From Escherichia coli (GTDB taxonomy: Bacteria; Pseudomonadota; Gammaproteobacteria; Enterobacterales; Enterobacteriaceae): 64,000 nt of DNA. Within the stretch, counting starts at the first letter, position 1; the number at the start of each line of letters is the position of its first letter. The stretch lies in the NCBI RefSeq assembly GCF_029227855.1, contig NZ_CP074356.1, one strand, 5' to 3'. The notes under the pieces are model-generated. The model saw only the letters and a list, made by a program, of their open reading frames with translations, ran no database searches and had not been told where the DNA came from. Shown here in pieces: positions 45,271 to 46,532 of the stretch. The translations under genes and the position numbers were made by a program.

Positions 45271-46532
45271 ATGTCTTTAAACGATTCTAAAATCCGCAAG
45301 TTAAAACCCTCTTCCCGTCTGGTAAAACTCTCCGACTCTCACGGTCTGTATCTGCTCGTCAATCCGGGCGGTTCACGCATCTGGTATCTCAAATATCGTT
45401 TCAACGGAAAAGAATCCAGAGTCAGTCTTGGCGCATACCCGCTTGTCTCACTGGCAGAAGCCAGGCAACAGCGCGACGGTATCCGTAAGTTACTGGCGCA
45501 GAATATCAACCCGGCGCAGCAGCGCATGGCGGAGAAAGCGGCCTGCTCCCCTGAAAAGTGCTTTAAGGCAGTGGCGCTGGCCTGGCACAAAACCAACAAA
45601 AAATGGTCGGCTGATTATGCCGCCCGTATTCTCGCCAGTATGGAAAACCATATCTTCCCGGCGATTGGTCATCTGCCAGTTGCCACTCTTAAAACGCAGG
45701 ATTTACTGCTTTGTTGCGGGTTATCGAGGATAAAGGCTTTCTGGAAGTCGCGTCCCGAACCCGGCAGCAACTCAGCAACATCATGCGCTATGCCGTTCAG
45801 CAGGGGCTTACCGAAAGCAATCCGGCGCAGCATCTGGATGGCGTTGTCGCCTCACCCGTAAAGAATCACTACCCCGCGTTACTGCTGGAGCGGTTGCCCG
45901 AACTGCTTGGCCGCATCGGTGACTATCAGCAGGGCCGGGAGTTAACACGGCTGGCGGTGGTGCTGACGTTGCACCTGTTTATCCGTTCCAGCGAACTGCG
46001 TTTCGCCCGCTGGAGCGAGATCGATTTCAGGCACAAAATCTGGACCATCCCCGCCACCCGCGAGGCAATCGACAAAGTACGGTTTTCGGGGCGTGGCGCA
46101 AAAATACGTACCCCGCATATCGTGCCGCTCTCCCGCCAGGCGATTGCCATTCTGAAACAGATACAGGAGCTTTCCGGCCATCTGGATCTGGTGTTTCCCG
46201 GTGATCATAACCCGTACAAGCCAATGAGTGAAAACACCACCAACCGGGCGCTACGCCTGATGGGGTATGATACGAAAACTGAAATCTGCGGGCATGGACT
46301 CAGGGCGATGGCCTGTAGCGCCCTGGTGGAGTCGGAGCTGTGGTCACGCGATACGGTGGAGCGGCAAATGAGCCACCAGGAGCGTAACAGCGTGCGGGCA
46401 GCCTATGTGCATAAAGCGGAGCATCTGGAGGCCAGAAAGGCCATGATGCAGTGGTGGTCGGATTATCTGGATGTGTGCCGCGAGGGGTATGTTGCGCCGT
46501 ACATTTATGCCCGGCAGCATAAGGCAGCCTGA
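45271..46532 (+). pseudogene. int: P4-type tyrosine integrase, disrupted by a frameshift near 45709-45711
   Basis: N-terminal part MSLNDSKIRKLKPSSRLVKLSDSHGLYLLVNPGGSRIWYLKYRFNGKESRVSLGAYPLVSLAEARQ... is in one frame up to ...LKTQDLL; the rest (LLRVIEDKGFLEVASRTRQQL... through the catalytic region, ending ...YARQHKAA) continues in another frame from ~45711. Confidence 0.75.

Follow-up and report, generated by a model that had tools for sequence, protein, structure and literature searches.

A one-base deletion in the P4-family integrase gene of an asnW island of Escherichia coli

Is the integrase gene that stands next to a tRNA-Asn gene of Escherichia coli truly broken, and what would the break mean for the island behind it? 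The window studied here, a stretch of 64,000 nucleotides of contig NZ_CP074356.1, contains an island of about 10.5 kb that begins at such a tRNA gene with a P4-type integrase in two reading frames (Table 1). It had been predicted from the sequence alone that a single base was missing from a run of T's, and that the gene either marks a recently immobilised island or suffers from a homopolymer sequencing error. The present study indicates with high confidence that the pseudogene is genuine and has been inherited vertically, the gene having once encoded a P4-family tyrosine integrase. What is missing is a C, and the same deletion is found in many independent genomes.

Table 1. Features of the integrase gene and of the island at asnW (positions in the window)
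Feature	Position	Strand	Remarks
tRNA-Asn (GTT), asnW downstream of yeeO; integration target of the island	45034..45109	+	ARAGORN; Rfam tRNA 72.6 bits
attL core	45094..45113	+	20-bp perfect direct repeat, left copy: CCAGTCAGAGGAGCCAAATT; covers the final 16 nt of the tRNA and 4 nt beyond
P4-family tyrosine integrase pseudogene	45271..46532	+	1262 nt; intact alleles 1263 nt = 420 aa plus stop
Truncated ORF actually encoded	45271..45861	+	144 native residues, then 52 out of frame, stop
1-bp deletion site	45704..45705	+	C here in all intact alleles (alignments); coding nt 435, codon F145 TTC
Out-of-frame remainder	45705..46532	+	second half of the central domain and whole catalytic domain
Second integrase remnant (Phage_int_SAM_2 PF12834 + Integrase_1 PF12835)	47870..48487	-	Pfam
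EFASI RNA	48543-48670	-	Rfam 100.8 bits; immediately upstream of the second integrase remnant
HTH_35 winged-helix gene, truncated	49404..49592	-	Pfam HTH_35 profile 1-58 of 75
C4 antisense RNA	50104-50192	-	Rfam 62.2 bits, gathering score 45
Rhs core protein gene (cargo; Rhs toxin)	50572..54753	+	Pfam RHS_repeat, DUF6531, RHS
TPR protein gene (cargo), downstream of Rhs	54756..55358	+	PGAP 'tetratricopeptide repeat protein'; Pfam TPR matches weak, all below curated cut-offs
attR core	55647..55666	+	right copy of the 20-bp repeat; BLAST breakpoints vs TUM9812 and F637

The split reading frame and the missing base

The open reading frame starts with an ATG at 45271, 161 nt past the tRNA-Asn gene, and its translation stays in a single frame until a stop at 45859-45861. 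What remains of the integrase can be read in the next frame, directly after a TAA at 45690-45692 and up to 46532. The frame switch that had been placed inside 45690-45730 is real and far beyond chance, because one Pfam domain is split cleanly across the frame change. Positions 1-52 of the Phage_int_M profile are found in the upstream piece and positions 52-95 in the downstream piece. An Arm-DNA-bind_3 domain (PF13356; residues 3-87, E=4.5e-25) is present in full in the upstream piece, and the Phage_integrase domain (PF00589; E=6.3e-17) lies in the downstream piece. What the truncated ORF encodes is an arm-binding domain plus the first half of the central domain. The downstream frame has an internal TTG at 45711 as its only start codon. 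The uninterrupted single frame expected of a P4-family integrase is thus lost here through a 1-bp deletion at coding nt 435.

The exact lesion was located by comparison with intact orthologous integrases. In strain 1190 and in an O166:H15 strain the same island is present at the same tRNA, and there the gene is annotated as intact (420 aa, WP_000055678.1). This closest intact allele, 99.5% identical, reads GATTTCACT against GATTT-ACT in the window, from which it differs by 5 substitutions and the 1 missing C. In the wider alignment intact alleles read GATTTCACTGCTTTGTTG against GATTT-ACTGCTTTGTTG in the window, so that the deleted form is GATTTACT where the intact form is GATTTCACT. The C is also kept in three more distant alleles, about 95% identical (TUM9812, 12E115 and F637). 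It is the third position of codon F145 (TTC) and lies between TTT and A, a lone C outside any homopolymer. Restoring it gives the peptide ...KTQDFTALLRVIE..., exactly that of the intact protein, and the stretch ...KTQDFTALLRVIEDKGF... of the translation is likewise identical.

The original prediction was therefore right that one base put back makes a continuous integrase of 420 aa, and the alignment with intact alleles confirms the loss of a single base; it moves that loss, however, from the T run at about 45709-45711, where the lesion does not lie, to a C between 45704 and 45705. Intact and broken alleles alike have three T's in the CTTTG run at 45710-45712. An extra T there, the repair first proposed, gives ...QDLLLLLRVIE..., with three residues wrong, and the intact allele has the same T's. 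Sequence reads with an additional T had been named as the observation that would overturn the prediction; this names the wrong base, the missing one being a C.

The family assignment made earlier is borne out. In a tblastn search the restored or intact protein matched phage P4 Int (X51522, NC_001609) with 49.5% amino acid identity over 98% of its length (E=1e-126), and it shows the arm-binding, central and catalytic architecture of this integrase. Its arm domain also matches PDB 3jtz, described as 'CP4-like integrase', with E=2.9e-35. The motifs IRSSEL, HGLR, SHQ and AAY can be read in the downstream frame of the window, and the same four are invariant when the closest intact allele (strain 1190) is aligned with the integrases of the HPI and pks islands. 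We take these motifs to be the carriers of the catalytic Arg / His-x-x-Arg / His / Tyr of tyrosine recombinases. The residues were assigned by motif and alignment invariance because the PDB offered only isolated arm and central domains of relatives and no full-length solved structure on which they could be placed. With a catalytic domain, a PF13356 arm domain, full-length similarity to P4 Int and a position next to a tRNA gene with direct repeats, the window integrase is a P4-family member by descent, but a pseudogene.

The intact 420-aa enzyme would recombine the attachment site of the island with the 3' end of the tRNA-Asn gene. Its N-terminal arm-binding and central domains would place the protein on DNA, and the C-terminal domain would cut and rejoin the strands. 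Loss of the C from codon 145, which lies midway through the central domain, is predicted to leave 144 native and 52 nonsense residues before the stop, and the catalytic domain would never be made. The product should be unable to cut or rejoin DNA, as neither the catalytic domain nor one half of the central domain is left in it. Judged from this domain architecture, recombinase activity has presumably been lost.

The deleted allele among E. coli genomes

When the gene was compared by megablast with 5,426 complete E. coli genomes, 67 of them matched at 99% identity or more. Among the best 60 of these 67 matches, the first 48 align over 1261 nt and have the deletion, and the next 12 align over 1262 nt at 99.5% identity. 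The lesion is absent from the intact orthologues and is found again in independent genomes; 48 complete genomes have the deletion, and about 12 or more at 99.5% identity have the C. Many countries and laboratories are represented among the 48 genomes, whose sources are pigs, wild boar, chickens, humans, a swan, wastewater and hospital surfaces; they include single-study clusters (many pig ETEC isolates, three Z142 and three ST2747 records), and independent observations are fewer than 48. All eight public deleted copies examined are at asnW and are marked by PGAP as 'tyrosine-type recombinase/integrase, frameshifted'.

It was observed that the changes E89K, P136P and N199N, relative to the intact allele, are present in nine of nine deleted alleles compared (the window, which has all three, and 8 public genomes). 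The three linked SNPs are absent from both intact alleles compared, and one of them, C408A, lies 27 nt upstream of the lesion. Because the deletion co-segregates with these SNPs in all deleted alleles compared, it is an inherited haplotype marker, and together with them it could serve as a lineage marker. It is neither private nor very recent, since the deleted allele is common to strains with four different YeeO protein alleles, with up to five substitutions within the gene. Changes within the deleted clade amount to 4 non-synonymous (P17L, which the window carries, N45S, R173C and S249R) versus 2 synonymous, too few events for statistics; between the intact alleles 18 of 63 differences are non-synonymous. 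The changes in the deleted clade may fit relaxed constraint, although this small sample is suggestive only.

Could the gene be intact after all, the base having been lost in sequencing or assembly of the window? Single-base indels are the commonest assembly error, and the window does have a nonsense codon in its Rhs gene that is shared by no public complete genome, so private differences or errors do exist. An error is nevertheless very unlikely here, in a homopolymer or otherwise. The missing base is outside any run, the identical deletion is seen in 48 of the best 60 of 67 complete genomes produced in many laboratories and on many platforms, and it is linked to three SNPs absent from the intact allele, the nearest only 27 nt away. 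If the deletion is accepted, programmed -1 ribosomal frameshifting or transcriptional slippage might still yield some full-length integrase. Mobile elements often have genes with programmed frameshifts (IS1 and IS3 transposases are so annotated in related loci), and the zone in which a bypass would be permitted, from the TAA at 45690 to the stop at 45859, spans 169 nt. Between these flanking stops, however, no slippery heptamer X_XXY_YYZ in the zero frame was found and no homopolymer of 5 or more bases (none longer than 4 near the site), so that the zone holds neither a canonical heptamer nor a run of at least 5 A or T. A single frame encodes the protein in the intact alleles and in the homologues from HPI, pks and P4, which makes the frameshift a derived lesion and not a conserved feature, and non-synonymous changes build up after the lesion. 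Recoding is improbable, and to a high degree.

The remaining alternatives give the broken gene a use. It is conceivable that the truncated product is kept as a DNA-binding protein, putatively occupying arm sites of its own or of related asn-tRNA islands and stabilising them. In favour of this, the N-terminal ORF still has a start codon and the whole Arm-DNA-bind_3 domain, most of the best 60 of 67 carriers of the island have the deleted allele, and tRNA-Asn genes are also the targets of the related HPI and pks islands. The N-terminal part nevertheless gains non-synonymous changes in the deleted clade, including N45S and P17L, a residue invariant in four aligned integrases; the 52-residue out-of-frame tail is arbitrary sequence; and the high frequency may reflect clonal sampling. 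Retention of the fragment is hardly to be expected. On another reading the knock-out of the integrase would have been favoured rather than neutral, either by locking the Rhs-toxin islet at asnW or by leaving the 196-aa arm-binding fragment as a decoy on the arm sites of the co-resident HPI and pks islands. If true, this would explain why 48 of the best 60 of 67 carriers have the broken allele; we would give it a slim chance. The reading preferred here is the genuine, inherited pseudogene, an ordinary one produced by routine decay of the island's mobility module and already flagged in dozens of RefSeq genomes. The gene should be annotated as a pseudogene of an integrase that has lost one C at 45704/45705; beyond that it has little significance.

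The island and its attachment site

The gene order in the window is cob/pdu, ldtA, a tRNA-Asn gene (40801-40876, minus strand), nac, cbl, a second tRNA-Asn gene (43210-43285, minus strand), yeeO (ending at 44933) and a third tRNA-Asn gene on the plus strand. The layout agrees with that of the annotated strain SJC33 and others, by which the third tRNA-Asn gene is identified as the asnW copy. Three tRNA-Asn genes with the same anticodon (asnV, asnU and asnW) lie within 4.3 kb (40801-45109), all ending in the same 16 nt, and asnW is the only one of the three that is occupied. A pattern search found this 16-mer in four copies in the window, of which three are the 3' ends of the tRNA-Asn genes and one is at 55647; 0.02 copies are expected by chance. 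Homology to island-free asnW-yeeN loci resumes exactly at the 55647 repeat. Both attachment cores of the island, about 10.5 kb in length, are intact. As the repeat search shows, the integrase gene stands at the tRNA-proximal, left end of an island with flanking direct repeats.

It was found that other parts of the island are also damaged. The second integrase remnant has a 99-bp in-frame deletion and a larger frame-breaking deletion with respect to the intact 294-aa copy in TUM9812, and PGAP marks it 'frameshifted' in all sampled copies of the asnW island. This second integrase is unrelated to the first, and related islands at asnT (TUM9812) and asnV (F637) have it in its intact 294-aa form. 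The HTH_35 gene has the change W63* (TGG>TAG) with respect to the 84-aa form in the lineage with intact integrase, by which the last 22 residues are lost. It forms a two-gene unit, with the C4 antisense RNA upstream, together with a hypothetical gene at 49589-50050; the latter is intact in the window and frameshifted in the intact-integrase lineage. With the C4 antisense RNA, a non-phage islet carries an immunity RNA motif of the phage P1/P7 type. In the Rhs gene a C>T change at 54172 makes a CAG>TAG nonsense codon (...LPG*QYD...) shortly ahead of the toxin tip and of the conserved cleavage motif at the C-terminus. This nonsense codon was found in none of the 5,426 complete E. coli genomes, the best match differing by that single mismatch in 301 nt, and it is either private to the isolate or an error. 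Directly downstream of the integrase gene there is a non-coding stretch of 1.3 kb. It contains a 131-nt direct repeat of 73% identity (46734-46864 and 46962-47092) and is the part of the island richest in SNPs and indels between strains, e.g. a 14-bp indel versus SJC33.

The lineage with an intact first integrase also has a broken second one, and a frameshift interrupts its hypothetical gene. In every lineage piecemeal decay affects the mobility and regulatory part of the islet, and the frameshift of the integrase is one step in it. The suggestion of a recent immobilisation can be kept only in part. Apart from the deletion the gene has no lesion of its reading frame, and its intact counterpart of 99.5% identity, which is only 0.4% away in substitutions, still circulates in the species. 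On the other hand the deletion is common to strains with four YeeO protein alleles and with up to 0.4% divergence in the gene, and there is other, older decay in the island, the second integrase being wrecked in the intact-integrase lineage as well. All sampled copies, with integrase intact or broken, are at asnW and give no direct sign of mobility just before the lesion.

As to immobility itself, we infer from the presumed loss of recombinase activity that the 10.5-kb asnW island, which keeps both 20-bp repeats, cannot excise or move by its own enzyme. This does not prove it immobile, since a related integrase elsewhere in the genome, e.g. an HPI integrase at asnT outside the window, might act in trans on the intact 20-bp repeats. 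For practical purposes the islet is to be treated as a fixed remnant and not as an active mobile element.

Comparison with known integrases and islands

The prototype of the family is the integrase of phage P4, an arm-binding tyrosine recombinase, as the window integrase is by descent. P4 integrates at the 3' end of a tRNA gene, its target being the tRNA-Leu gene leuX, and it is a functional satellite phage. The gene in the window, in contrast, is a pseudogene and belongs to a non-phage islet.

Closer relatives are found at other tRNA-Asn genes. Alleles about 95% identical at asnT (TUM9812) and asnV (F637) are of the same lineage, have the same second integrase gene as neighbour and are also pseudogenes. 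Their lesion is independent, however, a nonsense change at codon 177 instead of a 1-bp deletion, and the tRNA-Asn copy and the cargo differ. The same codon-177 nonsense is seen at two tRNA-Asn loci (15000-16262 of the extracted locus in TUM9812 at asnT and 15000-16262 in F637 at asnV). The double occurrence points to rearrangement or recombination between tRNA-Asn genes, and not to a dead integrase, as the means of relocation. In the O145:H28 strain 12E115 (asnT; 15000-16262 of the extracted locus) the 'intact' allele of about 95% identity has HGLK against HGLR in all others. An open reading frame is therefore no guarantee of an active integrase, the second catalytic arginine being replaced there. 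Taken together, the relatives at asnT and asnV show that the lineage used several tRNA-Asn copies over a longer timescale, although rearrangement could also have relocated it.

For the asnW Rhs islet itself no description was found in the literature; a search of open-access text for asnW, integrase and E. coli gave only papers on pks and HPI. The tRNA-Asn genes have been described as the hotspot at which the pks and HPI islands insert; both islands have a P4-type integrase and are flanked by short repeats (PMC8209727). The pks integrase is P4-type, and the pks island is flanked by short direct repeats of 17 bp (PMC8209727). The integrase of this colibactin island is about 71% identical in amino acid sequence to the restored window integrase and stands at exactly the same site, yeeO-asnW. 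It is reported to be conserved and intact, whereas the window integrase is frameshifted, and the pks island is 54 kb in length against 10.5 kb, without clb genes, for the island in the window.

The HPI integrase (E. coli and Yersinia, asnT) is about 70% identical in amino acid sequence and has the same three-domain architecture. Like that of the window, it targets the 3' end of tRNA-Asn, and its gene adjoins the tRNA and is transcribed away from it. The cargo differs, being the yersiniabactin genes in HPI and Rhs and TPR genes in the window island. The E. coli HPI is immobile through deletion of its right direct repeat (PMC8209727). The island in the window, with both 20-bp repeats intact and its integrase broken, is the mirror image of this state. 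Its integrase belongs by descent to the P4-family integrases with tRNA-Asn as their target, of which it is a third lineage in E. coli, and the island adds another case of islands at the E. coli tRNA-Asn hotspot getting stuck, here with the recombinase lost and the attachment repeats kept. The loss of the integrase is a different route to the same outcome as in HPI, and an unremarkable one.
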